From Patescibacteria group bacterium (lineage in GTDB: Bacteria > Patescibacteriota > Patescibacteriia > S139-126 > S139-133), in the NCBI GenBank assembly GCA_049604715.1, contig JBMYTV010000004.1:22535-86534 (forward strand): a DNA stretch of 64,000 nt, given 5' to 3'. The notes under the pieces were generated by a model. That model had not been told where the DNA came from. It did not search any database and worked only from the letters and a program-made list of their open reading frames with translations. The translations under genes and the position numbers were made by a program. Of this stretch, positions 23,816 through 49,816 are shown piece by piece. Position 1 is the stretch's first letter; each line of letters opens with the position of its first letter.

Positions 23816-23895
23816 TCAAACTTTTTTATCGAGCAACCGAGAAGGTAGTGGGTCGTGACCTGCTATAGTACTAGACCGAGGTAAAGAAGTTTTTA

Positions 23896-23921
23896 CAAAA
23901 ACACGGGAAACCGTGTTTTTG
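23896..23921 (+). terminator. rho-independent (possibly bidirectional) terminator
   Basis: CAAAAACACGG-GAAA-CCGTGTTTTTG. Confidence 0.55.
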
Positions 23922-23960
23922 TGTTTCTGGGTGATTAGCGATTTGACTAAATAAATACTA

Positions 23961-23989
23961 TTGTATACAATGTATACGTTGTAATACAG
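23961..23989 (+). promoter_or_regulatory. candidate operator/promoter upstream of the RHH regulator gene
   Basis: TTGTATACAATGTATACGTTGTAATACAG: TGTATAC direct repeat with embedded palindrome TGTATACA and -10-like TAATAC; 15 nt upstream of the ATG. Confidence 0.3.
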
Positions 23990-24003
23990 TAAGTCATAAA
24001 CAT

Positions 24004-24363
24004 ATGTCTAAGAAAAAAGTTATCAATACTCGTGTATCTGAAGAGCTATACGATAAAATATCTAAAAAGGCCGAAGAGCATCGTGTCACGGTCTCTAACC
24101 TAGTAAGAAACCTAGTCGAAGACGTTGTTGAGATACATGGCGATCTTTCTGATGTGTTCGACAAAAAATTAAGAAAGACATTGTTTGATAAAGATGAAGA
24201 CAGTATTTTAGGTCATCAAGAAATAACTCTCAATAAAAACACAGATTGCGACGTGTGTGAAAAACAAGTCAAAAAAGGCGCTAAAGCCTTTGTTGAGATT
24301 TACGAACAGTCAAACAGTAAAAGTGTTGTTTGTGAGGCTTGTAAAAAGAAAAGGGTAAAGTAA
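24004..24363 (+). CDS. ribbon-helix-helix (CopG/Arc/MetJ-type) DNA-binding protein with C-terminal Cys4 zinc ribbon
   Basis: INTRVSEELYDKISKKAEEHRVTVSNLVRNLV RHH pattern; CDVCEKQ...CEACKKK. Confidence 0.6.
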   Translation: MSKKKVINTRVSEELYDKISKKAEEHRVTVSNLVRNLVEDVVEIHGDLSDVFDKKLRKTLFDKDEDSILGHQEITLNKNTDCDVCEKQVKKGAKAFVEIYEQSNSKSVVCEACKKKRVK

Positions 24364-24369
24364 AAAAAT

Positions 24370-25752
24370 ATGATAAAAAGATTTTTTATCATTTTGAATA
24401 TTCTAGGCAAATGGTATTGGCGTTCATTCATTAGAATACGCTCTGCTGATGATGTATCTAACCAAAAAAGAGCGCAGACACTTCGTGAATCACTTGAGCA
24501 TCTTGGCTCAGTTTTTGTGAAGTTTGGGCAGCTACTTGCCATGAGACCTGATATACTTTCTCGTGCTTACTGTCGAGAGCTTTTTTATTTACTTGATGAT
24601 GTTCCGCCTTTTTCATCAGAGATTATCAAAAGAACCATAGTAGAAGATTTTGGTAAGAGCCCAGAGTTTTTATTCGAATCATTTGACGAATCGCCAATTG
24701 CAGCAGCTTCCTTTGGTCAAGTCCATACAGCAGTTACTAGAGATAAAGAGAAAGTAGCAGTGAAAGTACAGCGACCCAATATAGAATTTATAGTAGAAAG
24801 AGATATAAAGTTGATGAAAGTTCTGGCACGAGTGATAGATGTGTTTCGAGTTGGGGTGAATAAGTTAGCTCCAATAGTTAAGGAATTTGAGATGTGGACC
24901 AGAGAAGAGCTTGATTATGAAGTTGAAGCAAATTACACACAAAGATTTCATAAGCAGACTTCGAGCGATGGCATTTATGCTCCTAAGGTGTATAAAGACT
25001 TATCATCCAAACGAGTTTTGACGGCTGAATATGTACCAGGAGCTGCTCTTAGTAAAATTTTAATAGCATATAGAGATCAAAACACAAAGACCATGGAACA
25101 GGTTGAGGACTGGGGATTTTCTCGAAAGGATGTGGCTTTCCAGTTGCTTCGCAATTCAACCAAGCAAATTTACCTTGAAGGCTTCTTTCATGCAGATCCC
25201 CATCCAGCAAATATTATCTTTACTCCTGAAAAGAAGCTCGTATACATTGATTTTGGAATTGTAGGGGAGCTTGGTAGGAGGGAGCGGCTAAAATGTCTCC
25301 GTTACACTAGGTCCGCTATGTATGGCGAGGAGGATCACTCTTTCGATGCGTTAGTTGAACTGTGTGATACAAGCAAGGTTAAGGACATGAATAAATTCAA
25401 GGAAGAGCATTCGGAAATAATTAGAAAAACTTTACAGATGTTCAACAAAGCTAAAGAGACAGGAACGTCTCAAATAGTAGGTAAGAAGTTAGTTGCTACA
25501 CTTCAGCTGCTTCAAAAGCATGGCGCTAGAATACAGACCAATACTATGAGATATTTCCGAACGCTACTCGCAGTAGATAGTTTGATTCTTGAGGTATACC
25601 CCGAAATGGAGCTTAAAGATATAGCACGGAGGTTTCGCAATGTCTCCATTGCAAATATAATTCAAGAATTACCAGATCATTTAGACGCCGAGACATTTGA
25701 AAAAGATATTCTTAAATGGTTGAGTATACTTGAAACCGAGTTGATTAAATAG
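24370..25752 (+). CDS. ABC1/UbiB-family atypical protein kinase
   Basis: FGQLLAMRPDIL, AAASFGQVHTA, KVQRP, FFHADPHPANI. Confidence 0.8.
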   Translation: MIKRFFIILNILGKWYWRSFIRIRSADDVSNQKRAQTLRESLEHLGSVFVKFGQLLAMRPDILSRAYCRELFYLLDDVPPFSSEIIKRTIVEDFGKSPEFLFESFDESPIAAASFGQVHTAVTRDKEKVAVKVQRPNIEFIVERDIKLMKVLARVIDVFRVGVNKLAPIVKEFEMWTREELDYEVEANYTQRFHKQTSSDGIYAPKVYKDLSSKRVLTAEYVPGAALSKILIAYRDQNTKTMEQVEDWGFSRKDVAFQLLRNSTKQIYLEGFFHADPHPANIIFTPEKKLVYIDFGIVGELGRRERLKCLRYTRSAMYGEEDHSFDALVELCDTSKVKDMNKFKEEHSEIIRKTLQMFNKAKETGTSQIVGKKLVATLQLLQKHGARIQTNTMRYFRTLLAVDSLILEVYPEMELKDIARRFRNVSIANIIQELPDHLDAETFEKDILKWLSILETELIK

Positions 25753-27031
25753 CGAGTTTAACTTTTCTATCCAACAAGGTTAACCGATTTCTCAGACAAG
25801 AGAGCAGTTCACGCTTCTCGACAATGTTTCCATTTGTAAGAATATATTTTGCATAATTTTTCATATCGGTTTCCTTGCTCAGTTTTGGTTTAGCTTCATC
25901 TAGCCCGAACACACTTTGTCTAAATTTGTAGTACCGTTCCACTTCTTGCTGGAGTTTGTTTTGTATCCCGAGTTTGTCAATAGTGAGTCTATCTATTAGC
26001 TCAAGTATTTGGTTTACCAAATTTTCTTCTCTTATATATAGTGCCTCACACTTCTTATCTCTCGATCTCGTACAGCCATAATATACATACCTATTCTTGG
26101 TTCCGTCTTTACGATACTTAAACTTTTCTTGCGCTGTAATGCCGGATCCACACTTTCCACAAACCATGAGTCTGGTAAAAGCAAACTCTTTGCTACGATA
26201 CTGAAACTCGTGATGTACTTTTATCTGTGCTTGCACTTGATCGAACAGTTCTTTTGAAACTAGAGGAGTATGTATGCCTGTATACCAGTTACCACTTTTT
26301 CTAGGATATTCAAATACTCCGTAGTAGAAGGTGTTTTTGAGTATGATATAGATATTACTGAGTGATAAATGTTTTCCGTTTTTAGTTTTGAAGTTTATTT
26401 CATCTCTGAGCCAGTAAAACAACTTCCTGCCGCTCCATTTTTCGTGTGCTACTTTTTCAAACATTTGCTTGATAATATGCCCTCGTTCCGGGTCTACCAT
26501 CATATGACATTTCCTATCACTACGTTTCTCATTTAGATACCCCGTAGGAGCAACTCCTGGTCGCAAACCCATTTCTGCTTTTGCTTTCATGCCTCTTTTA
26601 ACGTTAAGACCTCTATTATCATTCTCAAGCTTCGCTTGACTACCAAGAATCATCAGTAGAAACTTCTCATTAGGGGAGTTAGTAAATGTTTGCCCGTACG
26701 TTCTGATCTCTAGAAGATGCTTTCTATCCATGAGGTCGACCACAGATCCCAAATCCCCAGCATTACGAGCTAGTCTATCAGGCGCCCATGTCAGTATTCC
26801 GTTGAATTGGCCTTTGCCAATATCTACTAGTAGCTGGTTGTATACTGGTCGCTTACCGGACTCTTTGGCTGAATGTGCCTCTTGTCTTATTTCAACTACA
26901 TTCAGGTTTTCTCGTTTTGCCAGAGTGGTCATTTCCTTGATCTGTGAATCAATGGAAAGGGCTTGTTTTTCATCACTCTCGCTTGATTTACGAGCATACA
27001 AACAGTACTTAATTTGGGGTTGTTCAGTCAT
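25745..27031 (-). CDS. large serine recombinase (integrase/resolvase family)
   Basis: N-terminal catalytic YARKSSESDEKQALSIDSQ, recombinase domain, Cys4 zinc ribbon CGKCGS...YYGC...KKCEA, C-terminal coiled coil; 428 aa; convergent 8-bp overlap with the kinase gene. Confidence 0.85.
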   Translation of the reverse strand: MTEQPQIKYCLYARKSSESDEKQALSIDSQIKEMTTLAKRENLNVVEIRQEAHSAKESGKRPVYNQLLVDIGKGQFNGILTWAPDRLARNAGDLGSVVDLMDRKHLLEIRTYGQTFTNSPNEKFLLMILGSQAKLENDNRGLNVKRGMKAKAEMGLRPGVAPTGYLNEKRSDRKCHMMVDPERGHIIKQMFEKVAHEKWSGRKLFYWLRDEINFKTKNGKHLSLSNIYIILKNTFYYGVFEYPRKSGNWYTGIHTPLVSKELFDQVQAQIKVHHEFQYRSKEFAFTRLMVCGKCGSGITAQEKFKYRKDGTKNRYVYYGCTRSRDKKCEALYIREENLVNQILELIDRLTIDKLGIQNKLQQEVERYYKFRQSVFGLDEAKPKLSKETDMKNYAKYILTNGNIVEKRELLSCLRNRLTLLDRKVKLAI

Positions 27032-27102
27032 ACTATTTTGGTTAGTTATTAATTTCTAACCACATTGATGACGCAACCCTGCTAGTGAGTCCAGGATACT
27101 TG

Positions 27103-27122: not shown

Positions 27123-27172
27123 GTTTTAAGCCTTGATGTGGGTTATCAATCTGTCCCTTGTAACTATTTCAT

Positions 27173-27229: not shown

Positions 27230-27880
27230 ATGTTTAATAACAAAACCAAATCACAATTTAAGAAACTGACCATACTCTCAACAGTAGTTGCTGGGATACT
27301 ACATGTAACTTTGGCTTCTTCTCAGCACTCTGCAATACCACCAGAGATGGTTTTCTTTATTTTGGCAGGACTAGCACAGGTTGCTTGGGCGATTGTTTTC
27401 ATGAAGAAACAATCTGATGTGATGTACTACTTTGGCATAGTTATTAATGGTGGCTTATTGGTTGTCTGGGCACTTACTCGTATTTTACCTGCACCATTTT
27501 TAAACGAACCTGAGCATATAGGTACGCTGGATCTAATCATAGCGTTGATCGAAGGGTTAGCAATCTTCACTTTGGTTGTATGGCATGAAAAAGTAAGCCA
27601 TTTACCATCTTTGGTAGTCCGCTTTTCATTAGCAGCTTTGATAGCTTTGGTAATCGGATTTTTTGGATATTATTCAAGCATGGCTGCTACTAGATTTTTT
27701 CCAGATATAGAGGTGGTTGATCACCATGGGGTTGAAATAGGTGATAAACATGCAGATGATGGCCACGATAATGAGAACGAGGTTGACGAAATGCATGAAG
27801 TTGTGGATAATAAAGCTGATTCTACACAGGAGGTAGGGGATGATCAGAGGCATGATGATACAGATGATCATCATGATTAA
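27230..27880 (+). CDS. polytopic membrane protein with His/Asp-rich C-terminal tail (putative metal-binding)
   Basis: 5-6 TM helices; tail HHGVEIGDKHADDGHDNENEVDEMHEV...QRHDDTDDHHD. Confidence 0.45.
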   Translation: MFNNKTKSQFKKLTILSTVVAGILHVTLASSQHSAIPPEMVFFILAGLAQVAWAIVFMKKQSDVMYYFGIVINGGLLVVWALTRILPAPFLNEPEHIGTLDLIIALIEGLAIFTLVVWHEKVSHLPSLVVRFSLAALIALVIGFFGYYSSMAATRFFPDIEVVDHHGVEIGDKHADDGHDNENEVDEMHEVVDNKADSTQEVGDDQRHDDTDDHHD

Positions 27881-27887
27881 TATTCAT

Positions 27888-28304
27888 ATGGCAAGTAAAA
27901 ATACCTACAATTTATACGGTATCGCATTGACTGCTTGTTTTATATTGGCAGCGATTATATTACCTATGTGCCAGACGTACATGATGGATCATGCTAATAT
28001 GGCGCATACAGAACAGGCACAATGCTGTGGTGCTGACGAGTCAAATAGCGAGCTGGTCGCAGCTCATCACATTGCTTACTTCAAGACAATGTATAATGGG
28101 TTAGCAAGTAAGGGCACATTCGCTTTACTTCTTGGATTGGCAGCTTTATTTTTCGTATCGGCATTCCTGGTCTGGTCGCGTAAAGATTTCTCTCATGTAT
28201 TTCAACGGTTAGAACACCATTCAAAACTACCAGAGATACCACTGTGGAATTTTCTACAGATGGCGTATGCTCAAGGGATAGTTCAGAGTAAGCACTTGGA
28301 TTAA
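27888..28304 (+). CDS. membrane protein, hypothetical
   Basis: 2-3 TM helices; CC pair; start taken at the internal ATG after the previous stop. Confidence 0.4.
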   Translation: MASKNTYNLYGIALTACFILAAIILPMCQTYMMDHANMAHTEQAQCCGADESNSELVAAHHIAYFKTMYNGLASKGTFALLLGLAALFFVSAFLVWSRKDFSHVFQRLEHHSKLPEIPLWNFLQMAYAQGIVQSKHLD

Positions 28305-28379
28305 CAATATACGTTCACGTTTTTTAGTTGTGTCAGTTTTTTTGCTGATACACATCTTTATTAATCTAACGTAACGTAT

Positions 28380-29153
28380 ATGGACAAACCAAGTGTTTTT
28401 GACGTTATAGGGCCTGGGAAAACCTTTGGTCTCGGTATCGTCACTGCGATCCTCATAATTTGTACTATTGGATTTTTCGTTCTTTTGAGCGGTAAGTTCG
28501 ACGGCACAGCTACAGCCAAAAGTACAGATACCACTCAAGTAGTAAAAACTGGAACTCAACCAACGCCAACACAACCAACCGCACCACAGCCTGCAGGAAC
28601 TGGTGAAATACAATTAGCAGCTGTCACTGAAAGTGATTGGGTAAAAGGAAACCGTAATGCAAAAATCAGCATTGTGGAGTTTTCTGATACAGAATGTCCT
28701 TTTTGTAAACGATTCCACCCAACCATGCAGCAAGTCATTGATACGTATGGTGATGATGTGAATTGGGTCTATCGGCATTTTCCGCTAGATTCTCTTCATC
28801 CAACTGCACGTAAGGAAGCAGAAGCTACTGAATGTGCAGGTGAACTTGCTGGCAATGATGGTTTCTGGGCATATCTTGATCGATTGTTTGAAGTTACTCC
28901 ATCAAATAATGGTTTACAGCTTTCACAACTCCCGCAAATTGCTGAAGATGTAGGAATTAATAGAGCAAAGTTTGAAGAGTGTCTTGATTCAGGAAGGCAC
29001 GCTAATGCGGTACAAGAAGAATATCAGCAGGCCGTAGCTGCCGGAGGAAGAGGTACTCCTTATTCAGTATTGGTGGTTGGTGATGAAAATATACCAGTTT
29101 CAGGTGCAGTGCCATTTGAACAGTTGAAATCAATTATTGATTCTCAATTATAA
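28380..29153 (+). CDS. DsbA-like thiol:disulfide oxidoreductase, membrane-anchored
   Basis: N-terminal TM, Pro/Thr-rich linker, thioredoxin-fold active site CPFC. Confidence 0.75.
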   Translation: MDKPSVFDVIGPGKTFGLGIVTAILIICTIGFFVLLSGKFDGTATAKSTDTTQVVKTGTQPTPTQPTAPQPAGTGEIQLAAVTESDWVKGNRNAKISIVEFSDTECPFCKRFHPTMQQVIDTYGDDVNWVYRHFPLDSLHPTARKEAEATECAGELAGNDGFWAYLDRLFEVTPSNNGLQLSQLPQIAEDVGINRAKFEECLDSGRHANAVQEEYQQAVAAGGRGTPYSVLVVGDENIPVSGAVPFEQLKSIIDSQL

Positions 29154-29162
29154 ACTTAAGAG

Positions 29163-29738
29163 ATGATGAAGAAATACATTTCACAAGTAGTAACTGCAAT
29201 GAAGCAAGTATTTAGTACGTGGCAGTACTGGTTAGTAAGTCTTGGAGTGGCAGCAATGATAGTTCTGATAACAATTTTGCTTTCACAATACCAATTCATT
29301 GCTACCATTCTTGATTCAGAGCTGTTTGATTCAAAAGTGAAATTCAAAGCAATACTCAGTTCTTTGGGATCTTTCCAAACTAATTTGACGCTAGAAGATC
29401 AAGTCTTTGCTGTGGCCATAGCATTACTTTCGGGAGTTACTATGGCAATTGTTGTGTATTACTTTAAGCATAGATTTTCCCTTCAAATGGCAACTGGTAC
29501 GAGCTTTTTGGGAGTCTTGGTTGGATTGTTTGGTGTGGGATGTTCTGCGTGCGGATCGGTAGTTGTTTCTACTATTTTTGGAATCGGAGCAGCAAGTGCT
29601 TTTTTAGGAGCATTGCCATTCAAAGGAACTGAGATAAGTATATTGAGCATACTGATATTACTTGGCTCAATATACATGATTGCAAAGAAAATAGTTTCAC
29701 CAGATGTGTGTGAAATAAAACCTTCTTCATCGTCTTGA
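29163..29738 (+). CDS. membrane protein with Cys-rich motif, hypothetical
   Basis: 4 TM helices; GVGCSACGS motif. Confidence 0.4.
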   Translation: MMKKYISQVVTAMKQVFSTWQYWLVSLGVAAMIVLITILLSQYQFIATILDSELFDSKVKFKAILSSLGSFQTNLTLEDQVFAVAIALLSGVTMAIVVYYFKHRFSLQMATGTSFLGVLVGLFGVGCSACGSVVVSTIFGIGAASAFLGALPFKGTEISILSILILLGSIYMIAKKIVSPDVCEIKPSSSS

Positions 29739-29759
29739 GACACTTTAAAGACGAATTAT

Positions 29760-30581
29760 ATGAAAAATAAGAAATACTTTATTGGAGGAATAGTAGTCCT
29801 TGTGCTTATCATTGGCGCTTTTATGTTAGGTAAAGGTGAGACCAATGAAGCGCAGGCACAGGGCAAGTTAGAAGTAGCTGAAACACATTATGACTTTGGT
29901 ACAATTGGTCTTGATAATGTAACCCATCCTTTTACTGTGAAGAATATTGGTGCAGGACCTCTAACCATTGAACGAGTATCAACATCATGTGGCTGCACTA
30001 CAGCCCAACTTAAGCAGGGTAGCAAAACCAGTGTTCAGTTTGGTATGGACCATGGAAATTTGCCAAAGGCCAACATGACCTTGCAGCCAGGCGAAGAAAC
30101 CGAAGTATTAGTGACATATAACCCACTAGCACATGGATTAAATAACGCAGCAGGACATTTTCGCAGAATTGTTTATATTCAGACCAGTAATCCTAAAGAA
30201 GAACATGAACTCATAGTTGAGATGACGGTTGATCCTGATAAAAAAACAGCACAGGAAGCTCAAATAGAATTTGATAAGCAGTCGTATGACTTTGGTCAAA
30301 TTCCAAAAGAGGGTGGTGTAGTAGAAACGACATTCACTGTATTTAATCGGGGTGGAGAAAGTCTGGCTATCAGTGATATCACCACTTCATGTGGGTGTAC
30401 TAGTGCGGAAATTGCATCAGAAAATATCCGGCCTAATGGTTCTACTAAACTAACTGTTCGGTTTGATCCTGATTTTCACGATGAACCACAAGGCAAGCTA
30501 GAGAGAATAGTCACGCTATTTACCAATGACCCAGAAAACCCTGAGGCTAATGTAGAAATATATGCTGAAATTATTGAATAA
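29760..30581 (+). CDS. DUF1573-like repeat protein (two CGC-containing beta domains), membrane-anchored
   Basis: Duplicated YDFG...STSCGCTTAQ / YDFGQ...TTSCGCTSAE modules. Confidence 0.55.
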   Translation: MKNKKYFIGGIVVLVLIIGAFMLGKGETNEAQAQGKLEVAETHYDFGTIGLDNVTHPFTVKNIGAGPLTIERVSTSCGCTTAQLKQGSKTSVQFGMDHGNLPKANMTLQPGEETEVLVTYNPLAHGLNNAAGHFRRIVYIQTSNPKEEHELIVEMTVDPDKKTAQEAQIEFDKQSYDFGQIPKEGGVVETTFTVFNRGGESLAISDITTSCGCTSAEIASENIRPNGSTKLTVRFDPDFHDEPQGKLERIVTLFTNDPENPEANVEIYAEIIE

Positions 30582-31785
30582 GCTCATAGTCTTTGTCGGT
30601 ATTGGCTTTTTGTTGGCGACCCCTGCTTTTGTTTCTGCTCAACAATCATTTTCTTCAGCTGAAGTTTATTACAACGAAGCATGTGGTGGGTGTAATGTCT
30701 ATTTGCAGGAAAAGTTAATCCCATATCTTGAAGAGCAGGGGTTAGTCGTAGAAATGCATGATTATGTAAACGACAAACAGGCTCGTAAAGACATGAATGC
30801 ATTTCAGGAACGTCTTGGAATTCCGTATGAGCTGCAAAGCCATATCATGACCTTTGTTGATAATGGAAAGTTGGTAATTGGTGGTCATGTGCCACTGGAA
30901 AGGGTAGAGGAGCTGTTTGCTGCAGGTGCATTACCTGACCAACTTGTAGTGTACCAAGATCAGATGCTTGAAATGGGGATCAACCCTGATACGGTGTCGT
31001 ACACGATTTGGCAACCTGATGTTGAAGTAAAAGAGTATGAATTAAATGAACCACTAACTACTTATTTGAGTGAGTGGGAAGTAGGGTCCCTGCAGCCAAG
31101 TAAATGGCAAGAAAAATCATTGTTACCGTTGGTACTGACGACCGGGTTGGTAGACGGATTGAATCCATGTGCATTTGCAGTACTGCTATTTTTTATAGCG
31201 TTCCTGTATTCAATCAGACGGTCGACCAGGCAAGTTTGGTTGATGGGCGCAACGTATATTGCTGGAATTTATCTGATTTATCTCAGTATTGGTCTTGGGT
31301 TATTTCAAGCAGTTACCATTTCCAGTCAACCTCACTTTATTGCTAAAGTGGCAGCGTGGTTAATTATTGGATTAGGTGGTTTGACGGTAACACAACATTT
31401 GTTCCCGCAGTTACCATTTAGATTTCGATTACCATCTTTTTCCAAAGTCACCATTAAAGAATGGCTAACAAAAGCTACCTTACCAGCCAGCTTTATTGCT
31501 GGTGTGATAGTGGGGTTGTGCACATTTCCGTGCTCAGGAGGGATTTATGTAGCAGTTGTGAGTATGTTGACTACGCAGAGTACGTTTGCGAAAGGATTAG
31601 GCTACTTAGCTGTGTACAATGTGATGTTTGTGGTACCACTTATTGCCATTTTGCTCGCGGTTGGGAATAAAAAGTCAGTTGAAAAGGTTGAAACATGGGA
31701 AAAGAAAAAAGCCGGGATGTTCAAATTAATCAGTGGTGTAGTTATGGTTTTGTTGGGACTTAGCATTTTGATTTGGTTTGTTTGA
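30562..31785 (+). CDS. thioredoxin-like domain fused to a CcdA/DsbD-type transmembrane thiol-disulfide transporter
   Basis: N-terminal CGGC; TM core with LNPCAFAVLLFF and TFPCSGG motifs. Confidence 0.7.
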   Translation: MLKLLNKLIVFVGIGFLLATPAFVSAQQSFSSAEVYYNEACGGCNVYLQEKLIPYLEEQGLVVEMHDYVNDKQARKDMNAFQERLGIPYELQSHIMTFVDNGKLVIGGHVPLERVEELFAAGALPDQLVVYQDQMLEMGINPDTVSYTIWQPDVEVKEYELNEPLTTYLSEWEVGSLQPSKWQEKSLLPLVLTTGLVDGLNPCAFAVLLFFIAFLYSIRRSTRQVWLMGATYIAGIYLIYLSIGLGLFQAVTISSQPHFIAKVAAWLIIGLGGLTVTQHLFPQLPFRFRLPSFSKVTIKEWLTKATLPASFIAGVIVGLCTFPCSGGIYVAVVSMLTTQSTFAKGLGYLAVYNVMFVVPLIAILLAVGNKKSVEKVETWEKKKAGMFKLISGVVMVLLGLSILIWFV

Positions 31786-32236: not shown

Positions 32237-32255
32237 GAATGTAATCTACTGAACT

Positions 32256-32528: not shown

Positions 32529-32552
32529 TTACTAACCTTAAATAGCTATGTT

Positions 32553-33134: not shown

Positions 33135-33139
33135 TAGGC

Positions 33140-36222: not shown

Positions 36223-36226
36223 TTTC

Positions 36227-40962: not shown

Positions 40963-42277
40963 ATTTCTTACGTTTAAGACCAGTTAATTTCTCCCATCTA
41001 TTCATGATTACTTCAGCATAGACGGGTGATTTTTCCATGAGATAGCACCGGCGTTTCATCTTGGTAGCTGCAATCAAAGTAGATCCACTACCACCAAAGG
41101 GTTCTACAATTAGGTCGTCACGTTTGGTTAAGACCTTTATGTAGGGGATTAATATCTCCACTGGCTTTGTGCCAAAGATGATTCCTTGACCAGATGACTG
41201 TTCGTCACTGGCTTTGTAATCAATAAAATCAGTTGGTGCGTATTTTTTACCCTTCTTGTATCCTTCCCAATGTGGTTTGCCTGAAATAGCAAACAAAGCC
41301 GTCTCATATTCTTCTTGTAGTAATGTTTCTTCAGATTCTTGATTCAGTGTTCGTTCTCCGCTAGTGCCAACCATGGCAATGTCATGTTTTGAGAAGAATT
41401 TGTACTTAGCTGCAAATCCTTGTGTTCTATTAGGTAGGCGCCACACAATCATATTTTTAACCTTCCAATGCTTTTCCATTTCGTTCCAGATCGTACGTAT
41501 GTTCTTCCAGTTCTCATACACGATGATTGAGAAGTCGTTCTTTGCCACTTGAGTAATGTTGTTCATCCATAGCTCCGTAAAATTATCTGGTAGTACATCT
41601 GTCTCTAAATACCTACGATCACGTTTGTATCCAAACCCTTCATTCTTTTTGTTTTTCTTTTTACCTTTGAGGTAGTCGAGAATATATGGAGGGTCGGTGA
41701 AGCACATATCAGCTTGCTTTCCATTCATAAGCTTCAGGACATCTGCTTCAACAGTAGAGTCACCACACATGAGCTTTGAGTCACCAAGCTGATACACATC
41801 ACCTTTTTTTACTTTGACTTCTGTGATGTTCAGTTTTTCCAACTCTTTTTTTAAGTCAAATTCTTCTGGATTGTCGTCGATATCAAATACATTATCCAGT
41901 TCCTCGCTGGAGAACCCGACATCTGAAAGAAACGACTCATCAAACTTAGCTAACAGATCAAAGTCAAATTCACCAGTATTTTTGTTGAGTCGGATATTCA
42001 GCTCTTTTTCTTTTTCAAGATCTGGAATGTTGACGTAGACAACTGGAATTGAATCAACACCCAAGTCCTTTGCAATTTTGAGCCTAAAGTGACCTCCGAT
42101 AACTATGTTCATTCTGTCTGGAGCAGAGTTACATATTATTGGGTCAACTAGCCCAAAGCGTTTGATGCTTTCAGTTAGTTGAGCAATGGCATCCTCACTC
42201 CATTTACGTGGATTATATGTTGCGACCTTGAGGTCTTTGGCAGGGAGGTATACAACCTCCATTTTTGCGTTTTGCAT
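40955..42277 (-). CDS. ParB-like nuclease domain fused to a beta-class DNA (N6-adenine/N4-cytosine) methyltransferase
   Basis: N-terminal ParB/Srx (DPIICN...IVIGGHFRLKIAKDLG); motif IV FTDPPY precedes motif I EPFGGSGST. Confidence 0.8.
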   Translation of the reverse strand: MQNAKMEVVYLPAKDLKVATYNPRKWSEDAIAQLTESIKRFGLVDPIICNSAPDRMNIVIGGHFRLKIAKDLGVDSIPVVYVNIPDLEKEKELNIRLNKNTGEFDFDLLAKFDESFLSDVGFSSEELDNVFDIDDNPEEFDLKKELEKLNITEVKVKKGDVYQLGDSKLMCGDSTVEADVLKLMNGKQADMCFTDPPYILDYLKGKKKNKKNEGFGYKRDRRYLETDVLPDNFTELWMNNITQVAKNDFSIIVYENWKNIRTIWNEMEKHWKVKNMIVWRLPNRTQGFAAKYKFFSKHDIAMVGTSGERTLNQESEETLLQEEYETALFAISGKPHWEGYKKGKKYAPTDFIDYKASDEQSSGQGIIFGTKPVEILIPYIKVLTKRDDLIVEPFGGSGSTLIAATKMKRRCYLMEKSPVYAEVIMNRWEKLTGLKRKKYE

Positions 42278-42631: not shown

Positions 42632-43282
42632 ATGCATATACTCCAACAAAGAATTCTAAATTTAGCTCAACAAGTAGACCTATCAAAACTAGGCTTACGA
42701 AAGCTAGGTAATCTACTCCATGAGAAATGGCCACAGAAGGTGAAGCACCATTTGCTGCAGTTGGAAGAGAACGGTTATGTGAAATTGGATACCAACAAGA
42801 GCCGGGTTATAAAAGTTTTAAAAAAGGGAAAACCAGCTCAGGGCTCAAAATTATTCAGGATCCCCATCTTGGGTTCTGCAAATGCTGGACCTGCTACTAT
42901 ATATGCGGATCAAGATGTTCAGGGTTATTTGCCAATATCTCAAACGGTTTTAGGCAGAAATAGCACCGATGGTTTGTTTGCCATCAGAGTAGTGGGCGAT
43001 TCTTTAAATAGAGCCACGGATGTTAAAGGTGGTCCAGTTAATAATGGTGATTATGTTGTTGTAGATAGTAAAGTAACAAAACCAAGTAATGGTGATTATG
43101 TGCTATCAGTGATTGACCAAGTGGCAAACCTGAAGCGATACTATGAAGATCCTAAGCATCGTGAGATACGACTAGTGTCGGAATCTAGTTTAGACATACC
43201 TCCTATTGTGTTACATGAGAAGGATTTTGATTCATCAGACTATTTAGTTAATGGAAAAATAATTAAAGTTGTAAAGAGTTAG
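42632..43282 (+). CDS. LexA/CI-like repressor (winged-helix N-terminus plus S24 peptidase domain)
   Basis: LexA-like DNA-binding (LLQLEENGYVKL), Ala-Gly cleavage site (SANAGPA), GDSLN serine and LKRY lysine dyad. Confidence 0.75.
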   Translation: MHILQQRILNLAQQVDLSKLGLRKLGNLLHEKWPQKVKHHLLQLEENGYVKLDTNKSRVIKVLKKGKPAQGSKLFRIPILGSANAGPATIYADQDVQGYLPISQTVLGRNSTDGLFAIRVVGDSLNRATDVKGGPVNNGDYVVVDSKVTKPSNGDYVLSVIDQVANLKRYYEDPKHREIRLVSESSLDIPPIVLHEKDFDSSDYLVNGKIIKVVKS

Positions 43283-43285
43283 AGT

Positions 43286-43990
43286 ATGAATATATTTAAC
43301 GAGTATACTTTGAAAGCTAGGATTGTTCCCGCGTGTATTACTTTAATACCTATTTTGGTTTTATATAATTTTTTTCTTCAGTTATATATTAATGATTTTG
43401 TAAATTTCGTAAATAATTTTTTTATACTAGCCAGTAACGTCTCTCTGGCTATAATCATGATTTTTGTTTTTGCTCAATTTGGTAGATCAGTTGGCAAGTT
43501 CTTGTTTGAAAAAATACACTTTAAGGATCAGTTACAATTCCCAACAACTGATTTTCTTTTGTATCAAAATGATAAATTGAGTAAAGAATATAAAGAAAAA
43601 ATCAGACAACAAATTGAGAATGATTTTCAAATAAAGCTTCTGGATCAAAAAGAAGAGAATGCTGATATTGATTCAGCAAGAAAGAAAATAGTAGAAGCAG
43701 TTGGCTTGGTTAGAAATAAAGTAAAGGACGGGAGGTTATTATTACAGCATAATATAGAGTATGGTTTTTATAGAAATGTTGTTGGTGGATCGGTAATTGC
43801 CACTGCTATCTCGATATTGAATATGCTTCTTTTTTTAATTTATTTGCCAAATGAAATTGCGCTTACCTTATCAGTGATTTTGTTTGTAGTTTATTTAATG
43901 CCAATAATATTTAGTAAAAAAATTTTAAATACGCATGGACATAAATACGCAGAACTACTTTTTCAAGAATATCTTTCTAACACAAATTAA
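43286..43990 (+). CDS. membrane protein, hypothetical
   Basis: 234 aa, 3-4 TM helices, Lys-rich central segment. Confidence 0.4.
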   Translation: MNIFNEYTLKARIVPACITLIPILVLYNFFLQLYINDFVNFVNNFFILASNVSLAIIMIFVFAQFGRSVGKFLFEKIHFKDQLQFPTTDFLLYQNDKLSKEYKEKIRQQIENDFQIKLLDQKEENADIDSARKKIVEAVGLVRNKVKDGRLLLQHNIEYGFYRNVVGGSVIATAISILNMLLFLIYLPNEIALTLSVILFVVYLMPIIFSKKILNTHGHKYAELLFQEYLSNTN

Positions 43991-44001
43991 TATTAATTAA
44001 T

Positions 44002-44922
44002 ATGACAAGGATACACTTTTTAAATGTTGGGGCCGGAGACTGTGCAATTATACACTTTCCTCCAAGAGAAATAACTGATGCTAGTGGTCGTTTAATAAAA
44101 ACTAAAAATGAAAGGATCATGATGATTGATATGAATCATCATGATAGCCACGATGAATACGAAGACGTTATTAGCTACTATAAGTTACATTTCGGCACAA
44201 AACCTATATTTAGGTTTATTTGCACGCACCCACATCACGATCATATATGTGGATTACATAAAATTTTTGCAGATCAGGATATAGAAATTTTAAATTTTTG
44301 GGACGTCATTCATGGCTTTGCACCCGAAAGTTTTGACGGTCATACTTGGCATAAAGCTGATTGGGACACATATCAACATTTGAGGAGTGACAGTACCCAA
44401 ACTCCGAAAACGATAAATGTTCTTAGAGAGACTGCTCCTTTTGCTTTTTGGGATGATAGTGAGGATAGGATCAGTGTATTGTCGCCAACTTTAGATATGA
44501 TTAAAGAGTTGCATGGACCTAAGCAGGATGGAAGTAAGCGTGAAGCTCACGAGGTGGATATTGATGATTTATCTTATGCTCTATTGCTTAAGATTGGTCC
44601 TATTAAGGTGGTTTTTGCCGGAGACGGACGTGAACAGGTTTGGAATGATATAGTTGAGAATTGCGGCTCTTTAATACAAAATACTCATATATTAAAGGCT
44701 GGTCATCATGGACATGAGTCAGGTTTTCATGAGGAAGCTATTAAGTTAATGGATCCAGAATTTATTATTTTTTCGAATAGTGCTAATGAAGATGGTAAAA
44801 ACGGGGCTAGTTCATTGTATGAAACAGCTGTGCCAGGAGTTGATGTATATAAGACGTTCGAACTAGGTAATATCATTGCTAACTGTGATTACGACGGATC
44901 AATAGAGTTTGAATATAGTTAA
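44002..44922 (+). CDS. metallo-beta-lactamase-fold hydrolase (ComEC-like MBL domain), standalone
   Basis: HFLNVGAGDCAII, THPHHDHICG (HxHxDH), KAGHHGHESG. Confidence 0.65.
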   Translation: MTRIHFLNVGAGDCAIIHFPPREITDASGRLIKTKNERIMMIDMNHHDSHDEYEDVISYYKLHFGTKPIFRFICTHPHHDHICGLHKIFADQDIEILNFWDVIHGFAPESFDGHTWHKADWDTYQHLRSDSTQTPKTINVLRETAPFAFWDDSEDRISVLSPTLDMIKELHGPKQDGSKREAHEVDIDDLSYALLLKIGPIKVVFAGDGREQVWNDIVENCGSLIQNTHILKAGHHGHESGFHEEAIKLMDPEFIIFSNSANEDGKNGASSLYETAVPGVDVYKTFELGNIIANCDYDGSIEFEYS

Positions 44923-44942
44923 GACATATACTTAAAAAAATT

Positions 44943-45977
44943 TTGACCAGTATGGCAATTTTTATACCAGATAAAAACATAAAATCTAATGATAGCTTTG
45001 GTCAAGCTGTTAATAAAGCGCATTTAGACTATATAAATTCAGAGCTCAAAAACAGGAAACTGAAAGGTTTCACAGTTGCTGGTGTTGAAATAATTTTGAG
45101 CGGTAAGCATAAAGTTTACTTTGATGGGGAAGTACAAATGTCAATTGAGTTCAAAGATAAAAAACTCAAACCGTCGGATAAGGGGAAAAACATTAGCTTA
45201 AATTTACATGATATTAAAGATATTAAATGGCAGGACCCTAAGTTAAAAAAGAATGCTGCTAGAATACTCATCTGGCGCTTTAATAACGACTGGTGGATTT
45301 GGGATGCTGATTTTAAGCAAAACAAAAAGCTTGAGGAAAGTTTTAAAATTTCTAGAAGTTTTGCTGTGCGAGGTGGAGGTTACATGCCTCTGAGTTTACG
45401 ACGAAAAGAAAGACCTGATTTCATCAGTGGGTGGAAAGATGGATTGGATAAAGAGCTCTCAGCAATGTGGAGGCGACATATAACGGTTTCGCAGCGCTAT
45501 CGAGGGGTAATAGTATATGATGGTAACTATTTCGATCTATTTTCTCATGCCCAAGAACTTTATGTATTAGGTTATTATTATTCGTCGATAGTGATATGTC
45601 GTACTGCTGCAGAGCAGGCGTTAATTCAGATATTACGAAAATCTGGAAAGGGATTTGAGATATACAAAAGAAATAAAGGAAAGAAAAAGTTAAAAAGTAT
45701 TGAGCAGTTAACCACGGCTTGTCGTAGTTATGCCTTATTTCATAAAAAATATCCAATTAATAAAACGGCTGCACGTAAAGCGAATGAGATATCTGTAATA
45801 GCAGGAAATTTAGTACATCCTAAGACCGGTTTAAAAGAATTGGATGTGTATAAAGAGGACGCATTAAAGTGCATGGATAACTTGCAGTATATAATAAAGA
45901 ACCATTTAAATTTTATCAAAGATACTGGAGTTGTATCTGGTTATAAAATAACAGGTTCTTCTAAGCGATTAAAATAG
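44943..45977 (+). CDS. hypothetical protein
   Basis: 344 aa, Lys-rich, no recognised motif; tightly spaced within the operon. Confidence 0.4.
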   Translation: MTSMAIFIPDKNIKSNDSFGQAVNKAHLDYINSELKNRKLKGFTVAGVEIILSGKHKVYFDGEVQMSIEFKDKKLKPSDKGKNISLNLHDIKDIKWQDPKLKKNAARILIWRFNNDWWIWDADFKQNKKLEESFKISRSFAVRGGGYMPLSLRRKERPDFISGWKDGLDKELSAMWRRHITVSQRYRGVIVYDGNYFDLFSHAQELYVLGYYYSSIVICRTAAEQALIQILRKSGKGFEIYKRNKGKKKLKSIEQLTTACRSYALFHKKYPINKTAARKANEISVIAGNLVHPKTGLKELDVYKEDALKCMDNLQYIIKNHLNFIKDTGVVSGYKITGSSKRLK

Positions 45978-45996
45978 GTATTTTTTAATTAATAAC

Positions 45997-47097
45997 ATGA
46001 AACCTCATCTCAAAGAACATCAATATTACTCCGACCTATACGACCGTCATACAGTCGAAAATTGTCGCGGGATAGAATCAAGATATAACGAATCTATCAA
46101 GAACAGAGTTGGCAAGAAAATGACAGAGAAAGACAGTGCTAACCTAACAGCTCATAGGCTGATAATGTACTTTGAAACTGGAGAGCGATACATCAAGAAA
46201 CAAAAAACTATAGATGAATGGATAGCTAGAGATACAGCCAGAGATGATTTATATAATTCAGCTCAAGCCTCAGAGGAAATACGCTGTTTAACGTGCAGTA
46301 CATTAATGACAGTTACTTTAAAAGATTTACAGATTTCAATACTTGAAGATTCTAAAGATAGAATACTATTCATGTATGATTGTCCTAACAAATGCCTACC
46401 CAGACGGGCTTTTTTTGATAATGGTGAAGAATGGAAACCAAAAGTACATTTATGCCCTAAATGTAATACTGAACTAGAATCTTCTAATGAAAGAAAGGGA
46501 GATAAAGTAATAACTACCGAGACTTGTAATCAATGCGATTATTCAAATGTAGATGAATTAGATTTGTCTGCTAAAAAAGAAAAACCCAAAATAGATAAAG
46601 ATTTTGAAAAAGATAGAGCTAGGTTTTGTTTAAGTGAAGAAGAAGGGCAGAAGTATATTCAAGCAAAAACAAATATGGAGCAAATGAAGCACTTGGTTGA
46701 TGAAATGAAAGAACGAGAAAAGAATAAGGATACTTATGATAAAGTCGCCAAGCTCAAAAAACTCACCTTAGTTCAATTAGAAAACACTCTGACCCCAGAG
46801 CTTGAAAAGAATGGCTATATAAAATTAGAATTAGCCACTCCAGAAATGGATAAAGATGTAATAGTAGGTTTTACGGTCAGGGAAAGCAAAGATGATCGAG
46901 AAGAATATGATAGCAAAAATCAACTTAAGAAGTTGGTCCAGAATTTACTCAAAGATACCAACTGGCGATTGATGAGTGATGGGATTCATTATAGATTAGG
47001 TATCCTCCAGGGGAGACTCAGGGCTTACGAGAGGGAAGGAGATTTGAAGAAACTTGTTTTATCACAACTGCGACAGAAGAGTAAAGAAGTTGTATAA
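45997..47097 (+). CDS. hypothetical protein with two Cys4 zinc-ribbon-like motifs and a central coiled coil
   Basis: CLTCST...CPNKC and CPKCNT...CNQCD; KE-rich helical middle. Confidence 0.4.
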   Translation: MKPHLKEHQYYSDLYDRHTVENCRGIESRYNESIKNRVGKKMTEKDSANLTAHRLIMYFETGERYIKKQKTIDEWIARDTARDDLYNSAQASEEIRCLTCSTLMTVTLKDLQISILEDSKDRILFMYDCPNKCLPRRAFFDNGEEWKPKVHLCPKCNTELESSNERKGDKVITTETCNQCDYSNVDELDLSAKKEKPKIDKDFEKDRARFCLSEEEGQKYIQAKTNMEQMKHLVDEMKEREKNKDTYDKVAKLKKLTLVQLENTLTPELEKNGYIKLELATPEMDKDVIVGFTVRESKDDREEYDSKNQLKKLVQNLLKDTNWRLMSDGIHYRLGILQGRLRAYEREGDLKKLVLSQLRQKSKEVV

Positions 47098-47104: not shown

Positions 47105-47581
47105 ATGAAGTCAAGAGAAATATTAAAACTTATTCTTGCCATAGGTATTTCACAGCTCGCAGGAATTATAGGATCGCTCTTTACCGCATCATCAATTCCT
47201 AACTGGTATGCAACTATTGAGAGGCCAGCACTGAATCCGCCGAGTTGGGTATTCGGTCCTGTCTGGACAACGCTTTATGCCCTCATGGGAATTGCTGCTT
47301 TTTTAGTCTGGAAGCAAGGCTGGGAGAAAAAGAAAGTGAAAATAGCTCTTGGAATGTTTGGTGTCCAGCTATTTTTAAACTCTATATGGTCTATTATCTT
47401 TTTCGGGTTAAATAATCCTGGTTGGGCGTTGGTTGATATCGTACTCCTGTGGTTTGCAATTGTCTGGACTATGGTTGTTTTCTATAAGATCTCAAAACCA
47501 GCTATGTATCTCCTTGTTCCATACATCCTCTGGGTATCATTTGCAACCTACTTAAACTATGCTATTTGGGCTCTCAATTAA
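47105..47581 (+). CDS. tspO: TspO/MBR-family tryptophan-rich membrane protein
   Basis: WYATIERPALNPPSWVFGPVWTTLYALMGIAAFLVW; 5 TM helices. Confidence 0.7.
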   Translation: MKSREILKLILAIGISQLAGIIGSLFTASSIPNWYATIERPALNPPSWVFGPVWTTLYALMGIAAFLVWKQGWEKKKVKIALGMFGVQLFLNSIWSIIFFGLNNPGWALVDIVLLWFAIVWTMVVFYKISKPAMYLLVPYILWVSFATYLNYAIWALN

Positions 47582-47594
47582 TTGGCTTGATGTT

Positions 47595-48032
47595 ATGGGG
47601 CTATTTGTATTCCTCGCTGGATTTGTAATTGGTCTAGGTGCAGTCACCGTAATTGACATTCACGGATTCCTCGGAAGAAAATCATCGTACTGGACCGAAG
47701 CAACTACAAGGACGCACAAAGTCACCAAGCCCATGATCTGGGCTGGCATATTTCTTGCCATAATCGGTGGGCTTATATTTTATCGGGGTGAATCGTTTAC
47801 AGGCATACCATTAATTCACACAATAATAGCTATCGTCCTTATCCTCAACGGCATTTTCCTATCATCCAAAGTCAGTCCATATCTTCTAAAGCGAGAACAA
47901 GAAGGTAAAGAGAAAGAACTGTTGCCACAATCGTGGCAAAACAAGATCATGGTCAGTCTCATAGTATCAGATATTGGTTGGTGGGGTGGGTTATTTCTTT
48001 TAGTAATCTATTTGATTACTCGTAATTTGTAA
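47595..48032 (+). CDS. membrane protein, hypothetical
   Basis: 4 TM helices; start taken at the first ATG after the tspO stop. Confidence 0.4.
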   Translation: MGLFVFLAGFVIGLGAVTVIDIHGFLGRKSSYWTEATTRTHKVTKPMIWAGIFLAIIGGLIFYRGESFTGIPLIHTIIAIVLILNGIFLSSKVSPYLLKREQEGKEKELLPQSWQNKIMVSLIVSDIGWWGGLFLLVIYLITRNL

Positions 48033-48042
48033 TATTACTAGC

Positions 48043-48813
48043 ATGATACTCTTAACAAGTTTAGGTATAGCACTTGGTATCAACATGCTCATGTTTATAC
48101 CTGCGTATATTTTCCGTACTGACAAACTGACAGATATTTCGTATGCAATTACGTTTGTAGTATTAGCTCTCTATGGATTTATCCTCAGTGCGGGGAATAT
48201 ATTTACAGGGATTCTCTTGGCTATAATTAGTATTTGGGCAGCGAGATTGGGTGGGTATTTGCTAATACGAATTAGAAAGACGGGAAAAGATAAACGATTC
48301 GATACGATGCGGAATAACTTCTGGAAGTTTATTCGCTTTTGGATCTTGCAAGGATTTACGGTATGGGCAGTGCTTATACCAAGCATTTTATTTTTTGGTA
48401 ATCATCCAAAACAGATATCGTCATTCGCATATATAGGAATAGGTGCTTGGATGATTGGATTGCTCATAGAAGCATTTGCAGATATACAGAAGTACCGATT
48501 CATAAATGATCTGAACAACAAAGGTAAGTGGATTGACACTGGATTGTGGAAATACTCCAGGCATCCAAACTATTTTGGCGAAATACTACTCTGGGTTGGA
48601 GTGTATGTATATACGGTTTTTGGATTATCAACCGGACAGGCAGTACTTGGCTTAATTGGACCTCTGTATATCGCTTGTCTGATTATTTTTGTAAGCGGAA
48701 TACCATTACTTGAAAAAGCGGCTGACAAGCGATGGGGTAGTGATCAAAACTACCAGCAGTACAAAAAAAGAACGAGCGTGCTTATACCGCTTCCACCTAA
48801 AAACATTTCTTAA
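48043..48813 (+). CDS. DUF1295 / steroid-5-alpha-reductase-like membrane protein
   Basis: WKYSRHPNYFGEILLWVGV signature; 6-7 TM helices. Confidence 0.55.
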   Translation: MILLTSLGIALGINMLMFIPAYIFRTDKLTDISYAITFVVLALYGFILSAGNIFTGILLAIISIWAARLGGYLLIRIRKTGKDKRFDTMRNNFWKFIRFWILQGFTVWAVLIPSILFFGNHPKQISSFAYIGIGAWMIGLLIEAFADIQKYRFINDLNNKGKWIDTGLWKYSRHPNYFGEILLWVGVYVYTVFGLSTGQAVLGLIGPLYIACLIIFVSGIPLLEKAADKRWGSDQNYQQYKKRTSVLIPLPPKNIS

Positions 48814-48818
48814 GTTTT

Positions 48819-49331
48819 ATGCGAAAGAAAACAATCACTGTGAATGACAAGATGCAGAAGAATTATAAATATCAACTCACTGAACCTGTGGGCAAAAATT
48901 TTGATCCTGTGTTTAAGCCAGAACTTACGCCAAAGCAGATGCTTGACTTAGGGGTATTTGGTGGACACTATATGTCTGACTGCAAAAAGGAGTTTCCTAA
49001 AGACTGGTTTACAAAAGCCAAGATGAATCCGGAAAAGCACGATGATTCACTCAACTATTTCCACAAACATGCATCTCAACCACTCAAGATATGGCAGAAA
49101 AAAGGCTGGATTAATGAAAAGCATGATCCCAGAGGCTGGTTTCAGTGGTACTGTAGGTACTACATGGGTAGGCGCTTGCCGGAAGAAGATGCTAGGCAGA
49201 TCAAACGTTGGAAAGCTATCCAAAGGCATGTTGCTCAGGTCAAGAAGAACTGCAAGAAAGGTGATATGACCTGTCGTCCGCGACAACGACAAGTGCTTCT
49301 ACATTGGGCGTATGATGCGAGGAAGATATAG
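48819..49331 (+). CDS. hypothetical basic protein
   Basis: 170 aa, Trp/Lys-rich (GWFQWYCRYYMGRR); no motif recognised. Confidence 0.4.
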   Translation: MRKKTITVNDKMQKNYKYQLTEPVGKNFDPVFKPELTPKQMLDLGVFGGHYMSDCKKEFPKDWFTKAKMNPEKHDDSLNYFHKHASQPLKIWQKKGWINEKHDPRGWFQWYCRYYMGRRLPEEDARQIKRWKAIQRHVAQVKKNCKKGDMTCRPRQRQVLLHWAYDARKI

Positions 49332-49816
49332 GGAAGTTAGAGTTCTAGACCGAGGTATGAATGAGACATCGAATACTCTCTTTTTATAGCGTCTCATTTG
49401 TCTCATTTACCCCGACCGAGAAGGGTTGTTTACCTGCTTGAAATCCTTCTAGATTTGCCCTAAGGTTACTGTAGGGGACAGGTTCTAGACCGAACTGTCC
49501 TGCCATAGAAATAACCCTTACCTTAGGGGTTATTTTTAGTTGGGGAGGTGGGATGATAGAACTGAGTAGTGTATAATTAAATCATGCTAGAAAAGAAACA
49601 GTCAGGCGACTATATAATATTTTGTGTAAGAAGTTAAGTGGGGTATTTGTTATGTCTCGTAAGTATATTGTTAATACCAAAAGTTCTCCATGGATTCCAC
49701 GTGGGTGGCGAGTAAAAGAGCATCAAAAAGGACTGGGAATTTTGGATTTACAAAGAGTTACTATCAAGCAGATAATTCTCTTTAAGTAAAGAAACAGTAT
49801 TGTCTATGGTAAGGCT

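Follow-up and report, generated by a model that had tools for sequence, protein, structure and literature searches.

Does the DNA that follows the tRNA-Trp gene in this stretch of a Patescibacteria group bacterium belong to one mobile element and, if so, where does that element end and of what kind is it? The question is raised by a window of 64,000 nt (contig JBMYTV010000004.1 of assembly GCA_049604715.1; all positions are those of the whole stretch), for which an initial annotation had proposed an accessory island of about 25.5 kb starting just after tRNA-Trp and bounded by short, candidate att-like repeats. Here, comparison with a relative in which the site is unoccupied, and with a family of related loci, leads us to read the island as a single integrated mobile element of 25,474 bp (23884-49357), inserted site-specifically at the 13-bp sequence CTAGACCGAGGTA, with its own large serine recombinase (LSR) as the probable integrase, and belonging to a satellite-like methylase/terminase family. 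We give this reading a probability of about 0.8. Our confidence in the island and its ends, as deduced from the alignments, is high; that the LSR would catalyze recombination at this core we hold with good confidence. Gene calls were checked with Pfam, PHROGs, PADLOC, Rfam and ARAGORN, the Pfam scan taking in 30 island proteins and the PHROGs scan 20. Relatives of the host locus, all at the family level, were found through the TPR protein (about 50% identity); loci related to the island were taken from IMG/VR, where 60 relatives of the LSR were recovered, and the arrangement of the LSR gene and that for the terminase large subunit (TerL) was counted over 56 loci.

The window has a GC content of about 40%, like a Patescibacteria (CPR) chromosome, and its first 22.4 kb hold housekeeping genes, followed by tRNA-Thr, tRNA-Tyr, tRNA-Thr, an L33-like gene, a lipoprotein gene, a small GIY-YIG gene and tRNA-Trp. 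The features at the two ends of the island are as follows.

23741..23815, + strand: tRNA-Trp (CCA), the host gene adjoining the insertion site (ARAGORN, Rfam); 75/75 identical in the island-free relative L087
23871..23883, no strand: left direct repeat, the attL core CTAGACCGAGGTA; an exact copy of 49345-49357, with the same core and right side in the related copy L232
23894..23924, + strand: terminator-like hairpin just inside attL, supplied by the island, ACAAAAACACGG-GAAA-CCGTGTTTTTGT and then a T-rich tail (folding)
49345..49357, no strand: right direct repeat, the attR core CTAGACCGAGGTA; the DNA after it is homologous to the post-core flank of L087
49358..49470, + strand: host flank (B' side) with a conserved long hairpin, AATGAGAC...GTCTCATT; best match of the L087 post-core flank, the hairpin folding in both
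49476..49506, + strand: third, partial core copy GTTCTAGACCGAAC (from 49482) in the hairpin GGACAGGTTCTAGACCGAACTGTCC, ending TGCCA; not in L087

There are exactly two exact copies of CTAGACCGAGGTA in the window (23871 and 49345). As first annotated, the left copy lies 55 nt past tRNA-Trp and the right one 13 nt past the last island gene, an open reading frame (ORF) for a 170-aa protein; the match between the boundaries extends to 19/22 (23862-23883 against 49336-49357). The 9-mer CTAGACCGA occurs three times (23871, 49345 and 49485), at the boundaries only. The third of these falls in the partial copy at 49482, which had been described correctly as lying in an imperfect palindrome and which may be an old att scar. 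By itself, the 13-mer repeat is not unusual, and the early caution that repeats this short are expected by chance is right as far as the 13-mer alone goes: the window contains 84 direct repeats that are exact over 13 nt or longer, such a repeat falls in 36% of tiles of 188 nt, the score of 16 for a local alignment of one boundary against the other is reached by 12% of random segments, and the left intergenic region has further 13-mer matches at 12367 and 50984. Such figures, and the normal composition of much of the region, are what would be expected if there were no island at all, only chance 13-mers among ordinary chromosomal genes.

The decisive evidence on the ends comes from L087 (GCA_964590655.1), in which upstream synteny is kept and the tRNA-Trp gene is identical to that of the window. 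L087 has one copy of the core, CTAGACTGAGGT, about 57 nt after tRNA-Trp, and the DNA that follows it is homologous to window positions 49358-49470, sharing the hairpin AATGAGAC...GTCTCATT, the pattern GACC.AGA..GGTTG and CTAAGGTTA. When the 131 nt after the L087 core were compared with the whole window on either strand, the best match was 49359-49468, with a score of 37 (22 for the next, unrelated match; median 11). Since L087 joins both flanks across a single core, the window carries an insertion of 25,474 bp at that core, and since the site is unoccupied in L087, the 13-bp repeats are true junctions. The empty site by which the initial annotation had proposed to check the island exists, and what were candidate boundaries become actual ones. 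With the flanks joined across one core in L087, synteny lost after tRNA-Trp in all relatives, and the island common to a distant host (see below), the idea that there is no island has almost nothing left to recommend it.

The attL-side hairpin (-20 kcal/mol; z-score -4.9) is kept in L232, and a similar one is found at an equal distance from tRNA-Trp in L202; it holds the position that the conserved host hairpin has after the L087 core. Integration inside the tRNA gene, with a displaced 3'-end at the far end of the island, was also considered and rejected: no second copy of the tRNA-Trp 3'-end was found at up to three mismatches, and a relic at 49477 matches that end at 20/32 positions, which equals background. 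In a classical tRNA-gene island the repeat is a copy of the tRNA 3'-end and a tyrosine recombinase lies at the tRNA-proximal end; here, the repeat is found beyond the tRNA, and the island ORFs gave no Pfam match to a tyrosine recombinase (Phage_integrase), leaving the LSR as sole recombinase. A fragment that resembles the D and anticodon arms of tRNA-Trp (TATCACCACGGTCTC...TCTCCAAA; 23380-23450) precedes the genuine tRNA gene, in the interval from the lipoprotein gene to the GIY-YIG gene; it is split by a perfect 24-nt palindrome, ACATGTCAGTCGTGACTGACATGT. On the other side of the island, the gene-poor stretch of about 1 kb that had been noted does contain small ORFs only (49332-50337); two of them, of 45 aa and 83 aa (49652-50068), share an IP.GW motif and are perhaps one broken gene or a small paralogous family.

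The gene order upstream of the site is kept in the family-level relatives (ClpB-like ... AsnRS ... AspRS, ScpA, ScpB, S11 peptidase, TIM, TPR, tRNAs, L33, lipoprotein, tRNA-Trp), the GIY-YIG gene being present in L087 and not in L083. In all four, similarity to the window ends right after tRNA-Trp. L084 has a tyrosine integrase at this position, and the locus is thus a hot spot. Past the TPR gene of L084 (10900-11560), tRNA genes look split by inserts of about 200 nt, with 5' halves and a 3'-end visible; ARAGORN calls none of them, and they may contain introns. Other searches brought in more distant sequences: the best match to TIM in genome contigs was 40% identical, the best match to PilB in metagenomes was 51% identical, no PilB match being informative on right-flank synteny, and exact-protein look-ups with flank genes returned the source sample only. 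Two Logan contigs from an independent short-read assembly of that sample (L001 and L002) end at 23805, inside the tRNA-Trp 3'-end, and at 43935, in a low-GC operon, breaks that could stem from strain heterogeneity at the island.

Between the two repeats lie the features below. All the gene calls of the initial annotation were obtained again with Pfam, PHROGs or PADLOC, and the LOOT RNA is an addition from Rfam.

24004-24363 and 24370-25752, + strand: RHH/NikA-like regulator and ABC1/UbiB-type kinase (Pfam), cargo between attL and the LSR gene, convergent with the latter
25745..27031, - strand: LSR, the putative integrase (Pfam, phrog_95)
27230..37699, + strand: cargo of the TerL-LSR slot (Pfam)
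37810..37931, + strand: LOOT RNA (RF03000), preceding the SNase gene (Rfam; 85.8 bits, gathering score 46.4)
37998..39059, + strand: secreted or membrane-anchored staphylococcal-nuclease-type nuclease (Pfam SNase, E = 1.3e-26; PADLOC SNc+LTD model)
39060..40550, - strand: TerL (phrog_38, E = 7.7e-73)
40537..40962, - strand: terminase small subunit-like protein, TerS (phrog_309, phrog_4044, phrog_1482; weak Pfam Sf6_terminase match)
40955..42277, - strand: ParB-N domain fused to an N6/N4 DNA methyltransferase, ParB-MTase (Pfam; phrog_498, E = 4.8e-82)
42632..43282, + strand: self-cleaving repressor of S24 type (LexA/CI-like), transcribed divergently from the methylase-terminase operon (Pfam Peptidase_S24; phrog_4)
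43286..47097, + strand: low-GC cargo operon for a 234-aa membrane protein, a metallo-beta-lactamase-fold protein, a 344-aa protein and a 366-aa Zn-ribbon protein (GC, PADLOC)
47105..49331, + strand: distal cargo, host-like in composition and inside the repeats, in the order TspO, membrane protein of 157 aa, DUF1295 and conserved protein of 170 aa (Pfam)

The LSR gene lies 1.9 kb from attL and points at tRNA-Trp. Its product has the three domains of the class (Resolvase, 8.6e-22; Recombinase, 3.1e-13; Zn_ribbon_recom, 2.5e-10) and matches the phrog_95 integrase at E = 1.9e-62; together with a discrete insertion relative to an unoccupied site and a core at both junctions, this is what an LSR element has. 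A promoter-like site precedes the RHH gene. The slot between TerL and LSR holds genes for membrane proteins, DsbA, DUF1573, a DsbD-like protein, a CsoR-type repressor, rhodanese, DUF302, a CopA P-type ATPase and a multicopper oxidase, and then the LOOT RNA and the SNase gene. In L186, an unrelated element, a LOOT RNA (5309-5430, - strand; 83.5 bits) is likewise found 5' of an operon with an SNase homologue; this RNA may act in cis as a leader of the nuclease genes instead of being a small RNA in its own right. The metallo-beta-lactamase-fold protein matches the PADLOC model PDC-M48B (1.8e-16), and the low-GC operon is a candidate defence cassette. As for the 170-aa protein (48819-49331), it had no match in Pfam or the PDB, all of the 8,000 database candidates scored were significant (8,000/8,000) and the best 120 listed were 71-91% identical, a conservation unusually strong for an unnamed protein.

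Composition, also put forward at the outset as a check, gave a divided answer: the DNA is atypical at 42-48 kb (GC 0.33-0.35; tetranucleotide z-score up to 5.2) and mildly so at 22-27 kb (z about 2), but the Dsb/copper block does not differ from the flanks and the core genome. Outside the island, the pilus locus at 54-59 kb, centred on a 1167-aa ORF (54658-58161), reaches a tetranucleotide z of 3.7, matching parts of the island. Composition alone would set the ends wrongly. Before the L087 comparison, the right end had been placed provisionally near 47.1 kb, on the grounds that GC returns to normal there, that the LSR loci offer no equivalents of the genes from TspO to the 170-aa protein, and that the 157/170-aa pair is seen elsewhere in a setting like that of a host; the junction seen through L087 (49345-49357) overruled it.

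What kind of element is this? Terminase, integrase and repressor genes, as a prophage would have, are all present (TerL, TerS, LSR, S24). In contrast, no portal, capsid, tail or lysis family was matched among the island proteins scanned. An integrase, a repressor and packaging genes without a full virion module are what characterizes a satellite, and the island reads as a satellite-like integrative element, although a replication module of its own, as satellites have, was not recognized. Very divergent structural proteins are possible, the 344-aa and 366-aa proteins being unannotated. The island could also be the remnant of a decayed prophage, that is, of a phage with an LSR that lost its structural genes, gained cargo and is now fixed and immobile. 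The missing virion and lysis genes would fit, as would the host-like composition of most of the island and the only 84% identity of the copy in L232 (see below), by which the association is not very recent. We nevertheless regard such decay as improbable, on account of the related loci.

Among the 60 LSR relatives, which are 45-69% identical to the LSR of the window, clustering of ORFs gave only four widely shared families, LSR itself (60 loci), ParB-MTase (55), TerL (44) and TerS (41); no structural gene family was common to the 60 loci. In 38/56 loci, TerL precedes LSR in the same orientation, with a gap of <300 bp in 17, 0.3-3 kb in 12 and 3-9.1 kb in nine of them. The order in the window, MTase, TerS, TerL and LSR, all on the minus strand, is that of the family, its TerL-LSR gap of 12,028 bp being filled with the plus-strand Dsb/copper genes, the LOOT RNA and the SNase gene. 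The TerL of the window is 40-51% identical to those beside related LSRs, and ParB-MTase up to 73% identical in related loci. Judged by these comparisons, the terminase genes are part of a conserved four-gene core and not a stray remnant. The same four genes, in the same order, are intact in at least 38 loci, which makes independent decay to one remnant unlikely; in the window, both repeats are intact (13/13) and LSR, TerL, TerS and MTase are full length, with their domains confirmed. In 16 loci, a tRNA gene is found 0.1-5.6 kb downstream of LSR and is convergent with it in 16/16, as in the window; tRNA-LSR convergence is a trait of the family. The tRNAs beside the family LSRs are those for Ser, Gln, Glu, Asp, Trp and Arg. 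No flanking repeats were seen in 16 related loci, within retrieved DNA that does not reach their far ends. An attP situated between TerL and LSR, in which case the 12-kb block would lie outside the element, was also considered and rejected. In L198 and L209, no more than 200 nt separate the tRNA from the LSR stop, and the tRNA of L218 is followed by a SAM riboswitch, placing the element end on the LSR side; L232, moreover, is collinear upstream of LSR.

Other island genes recur in the family. A homologue of the S24 repressor (54% identical) has the same divergent position in L180, the 234-aa family is found in L184 and the 366-aa family in L182, L195, L212 and L228, and homologues of SNase (L186, L192), DsbA (L222) and CopA (L219) also occur. 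By our own reading of the sequences, the recurrent cargo of these loci is defence-like, including type I restriction-modification M/S/R, type III Res and Mod, an OLD-like ATPase, a reverse transcriptase, and an SNF2 helicase with an Eco57I-like methylase. Some elements have two tandem TerL genes (L192, L197, L199, L200, L205, L230), and in others two complete methylase-terminase-LSR modules lie head to tail, 7-17 kb apart (L173/L195, L176/L177, L187, L204/L210, L212/L214, L228/L229). None of the related whole contigs is circular; the ends of L187 are 93%, not 100%, identical, as in a tandem array. The closest proteins of isolated phages are remote, at 25-29% identity for TerL (Mu-like phages) and about 26% for LSR (phi105 and WO). 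Text searches of the literature, with incomplete coverage, found no description of the methylase-TerS-TerL-LSR core, and the family is apparently undescribed so far.

A second copy of the left part of the island lies in L232, a 5.7-kb contig from another sample, which is collinear with the window from tRNA-Trp to DsbA (23741-28669; 84% DNA identity), has the same core, and encodes RHH, ABC1 and LSR proteins 91%, 88% and 93% identical to those of the window. Upstream of tRNA-Trp, it carries an L33 with a Zn ribbon, not alignable with the conserved Zn-free L33 of the window's family, and the 5' 56 nt of its tRNA-Trp differ from the window at 14 positions; on these grounds, its host is not a close relative. 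The same left part of the island at the same site in a distant host means that the island moved between lineages, and the L232 copy points to horizontal spread into the same site. In L232 (2507-2790), ABC1 is separated from LSR by about 285 bp that the window does not have; this DNA repeats the attL-side hairpin and also contains a small ORF for a Zn-ribbon protein, in which there is a motif of the GDCCVxC type. In the window, the two genes share 8 bp. An exact-pattern scan of IMG/VR for the tRNA trailer gave no match.

Single modules are also found elsewhere. L231 (742-2724) has the RHH-ABC1 pair (ABC1, 82% aa identity) with neither tRNA-Trp nor LSR, ending 140 nt from a convergent tRNA-Asn, and RHH-ABC1 appears to be a separately mobile two-gene module. 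Homologues of the 157-aa and 170-aa proteins are adjacent, the latter directly after the former and without DUF1295 between them, in the unrelated context of L233 and L234. Mosaicism around the TerL-LSR junction is seen in the related elements themselves: L216 shares 92% identity with L228 from the start of LSR on and is different upstream. These observations, with the heterogeneous composition, the tandem arrays and the tyrosine integrase at this locus in a relative, would suit a composite island, in which RHH-ABC1, the LSR element, the Dsb/copper genes, the low-GC operon and the genes from TspO to the 170-aa protein were acquired separately at a tRNA hot spot and only a part is mobile. Yet one pair of core repeats brackets all 25.5 kb, the core 9-mer is absent inside, and a single collinear piece of L232 runs from tRNA-Trp through RHH, ABC1 and LSR into the Dsb block; moreover, accretion of cargo inside one element fits a single integrated element and is not a true alternative to it. 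Separate acquisition deserves some weight, more than prophage decay does, and is still unlikely.

Several points weigh against a single element integrated by its LSR. The empty site rests on L087, which is a family-level relative and whose flank homology with the window lasts only about 130 nt; no same-species genome was found for comparison. The sequence directly left of the attR core (GGAAGTT) is closer to the left side of the L087 site than is the one at attL. To the left of the core, L232 and the window are identical at 52/52 positions, from the T-loop to 33 nt past the tRNA, a stretch of which L087 shares 24/30 positions before becoming unalignable; a simple crossover at the core does not account for this near-identity. 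Neither an excised circle nor an attP junction was seen, no replication gene (primase, helicase or Rep domain) is among the island's Pfam matches, and no recombination directionality factor was recognized in the island. Most of the island is host-like in composition. Finally, serine recombinases need only a 2-bp overlap, and a 13-bp core is permitted for an LSR but not diagnostic of one.

With these points in mind, the workings that we think most likely for a single integrated element are as follows. When unoccupied, the core has tRNA-Trp about 55 nt upstream and the conserved hairpin on its other side, and the LSR would recombine attP with an attB sharing the 13-bp core. The reconstructed attB (23870 joined to 49358) would read tRNA-...GCTATAGTA-core-TGAATGAGAC, and the attP of the circular form (49344 joined to 23884) ...GAAGTTAGAGTT-core-AAGAAGTTTTTAC. 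Cargo is carried in three places, between attL and LSR (RHH and ABC1), in the TerL-LSR slot, and divergently upstream of the methylase gene. The S24 repressor would keep the methylase-TerS-TerL operon silent until its cleavage on induction; the element would then excise, and its own TerS and TerL would load its DNA into the capsids of a helper phage. Alternatively, packaging could take place in situ and drag flanking DNA along. The methylase would shield the transferred DNA from restriction. We hold this satellite mechanism with moderate to low confidence. The flank shared with L232 might have been transferred along with the element, by excision that was imprecise or by packaging, with recombination inside the tRNA as the next event; in-situ packaging with carriage of the flank would explain why L232 has the 3' half of the window's tRNA and its trailer. 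A broader proposal, which we advance tentatively and think somewhat less likely to hold than to fail, is that of a widespread, as yet undescribed, capsid-less class of elements with an invariant core of ParB-MTase, TerS, TerL and LSR, situated beside tRNAs, with different recombinase variants at different tRNAs and, in fixed slots, cargo for restriction-modification, defence or, in the present case, copper/Dsb functions, and spread by helper capsids or in-situ packaging; the island would then be a complete member bounded by repeats.

The ends of a 25.5-kb island are now known to the base, in a lineage, the Patescibacteria, whose mobile elements are poorly charted, and a copper-resistance/disulfide-bond set, a LOOT-led nuclease and a candidate defence operon can be listed as mobile cargo there. 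The virion-less methylase-TerS-TerL-LSR core is found in dozens of "viral" contigs, many of them rich in restriction and defence genes, which suggests that many such contigs represent a satellite-like element class and not phages; the significance would rise if the family were a distinct class of satellites. Large serine integrases are used in genome engineering. If the LSRs of the family truly recognize short sites by particular tRNAs, they would be a natural set of differently targeted integrases of this kind.

How does the island compare with known systems? Integrative islands next to tRNA genes are familiar, and in kind this is one. Like the phage satellites (PICI/SaPI and PLE), it combines an integrase, a repressor and packaging gene(s) with anti-phage cargo and lacks a full virion set; the integrase of the PLE of Vibrio cholerae is an LSR. 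To our knowledge, known satellites have at most TerS or capsid-remodelling genes and carry replication modules, whereas the island has both TerS and TerL along with ParB-MTase; no replicase was identified in it, and its cargo, 25 kb in all, is for the most part metabolic or resistance-related. With temperate phages that use an LSR (phi105, the phiC31/Bxb1 type and Wolbachia WO) it shares the Resolvase, Recombinase and Zn-ribbon domains and a recombinase near one end. Those are complete phages, whereas the island is without structural or lysis genes, LSR comes directly after TerL in the basic layout of the family, and identity is about 26%. SCCmec-type (Ccr) elements are cargo islands with a serine recombinase, direct repeats of about 15 bp, a fixed chromosomal site and tandem accretion, and in all this they resemble the island; SCC elements, with ccrAB or ccrC, are targeted to the 3'-end of rlmH and lack terminase genes. 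Tycheposons, the tRNA-proximal cargo elements of Prochlorococcus, are described as cargo-carrying integrative elements beside tRNAs, with integrase variants that match tRNAs and with tandem occurrence, all features seen here as well; they include phage-parasite-like forms, and capture of flanking DNA has been proposed for them (bioRxiv 10.1101/2020.12.28.424599). They differ in having mostly tyrosine recombinases and partial tRNA copies at their flanks, and their hallmark genes include replication genes and TerS, TerL not being named in the figure legends of that preprint (bioRxiv 10.1101/2020.12.28.424599). The island, in contrast, has an LSR, a repeat 55 nt past the tRNA, and ParB-MTase, TerS and TerL with no replication gene recognized. 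Taken together, we would see the tycheposon as the nearest concept, and the LSR-driven PLE and SCC as the nearest mechanistic parallels.

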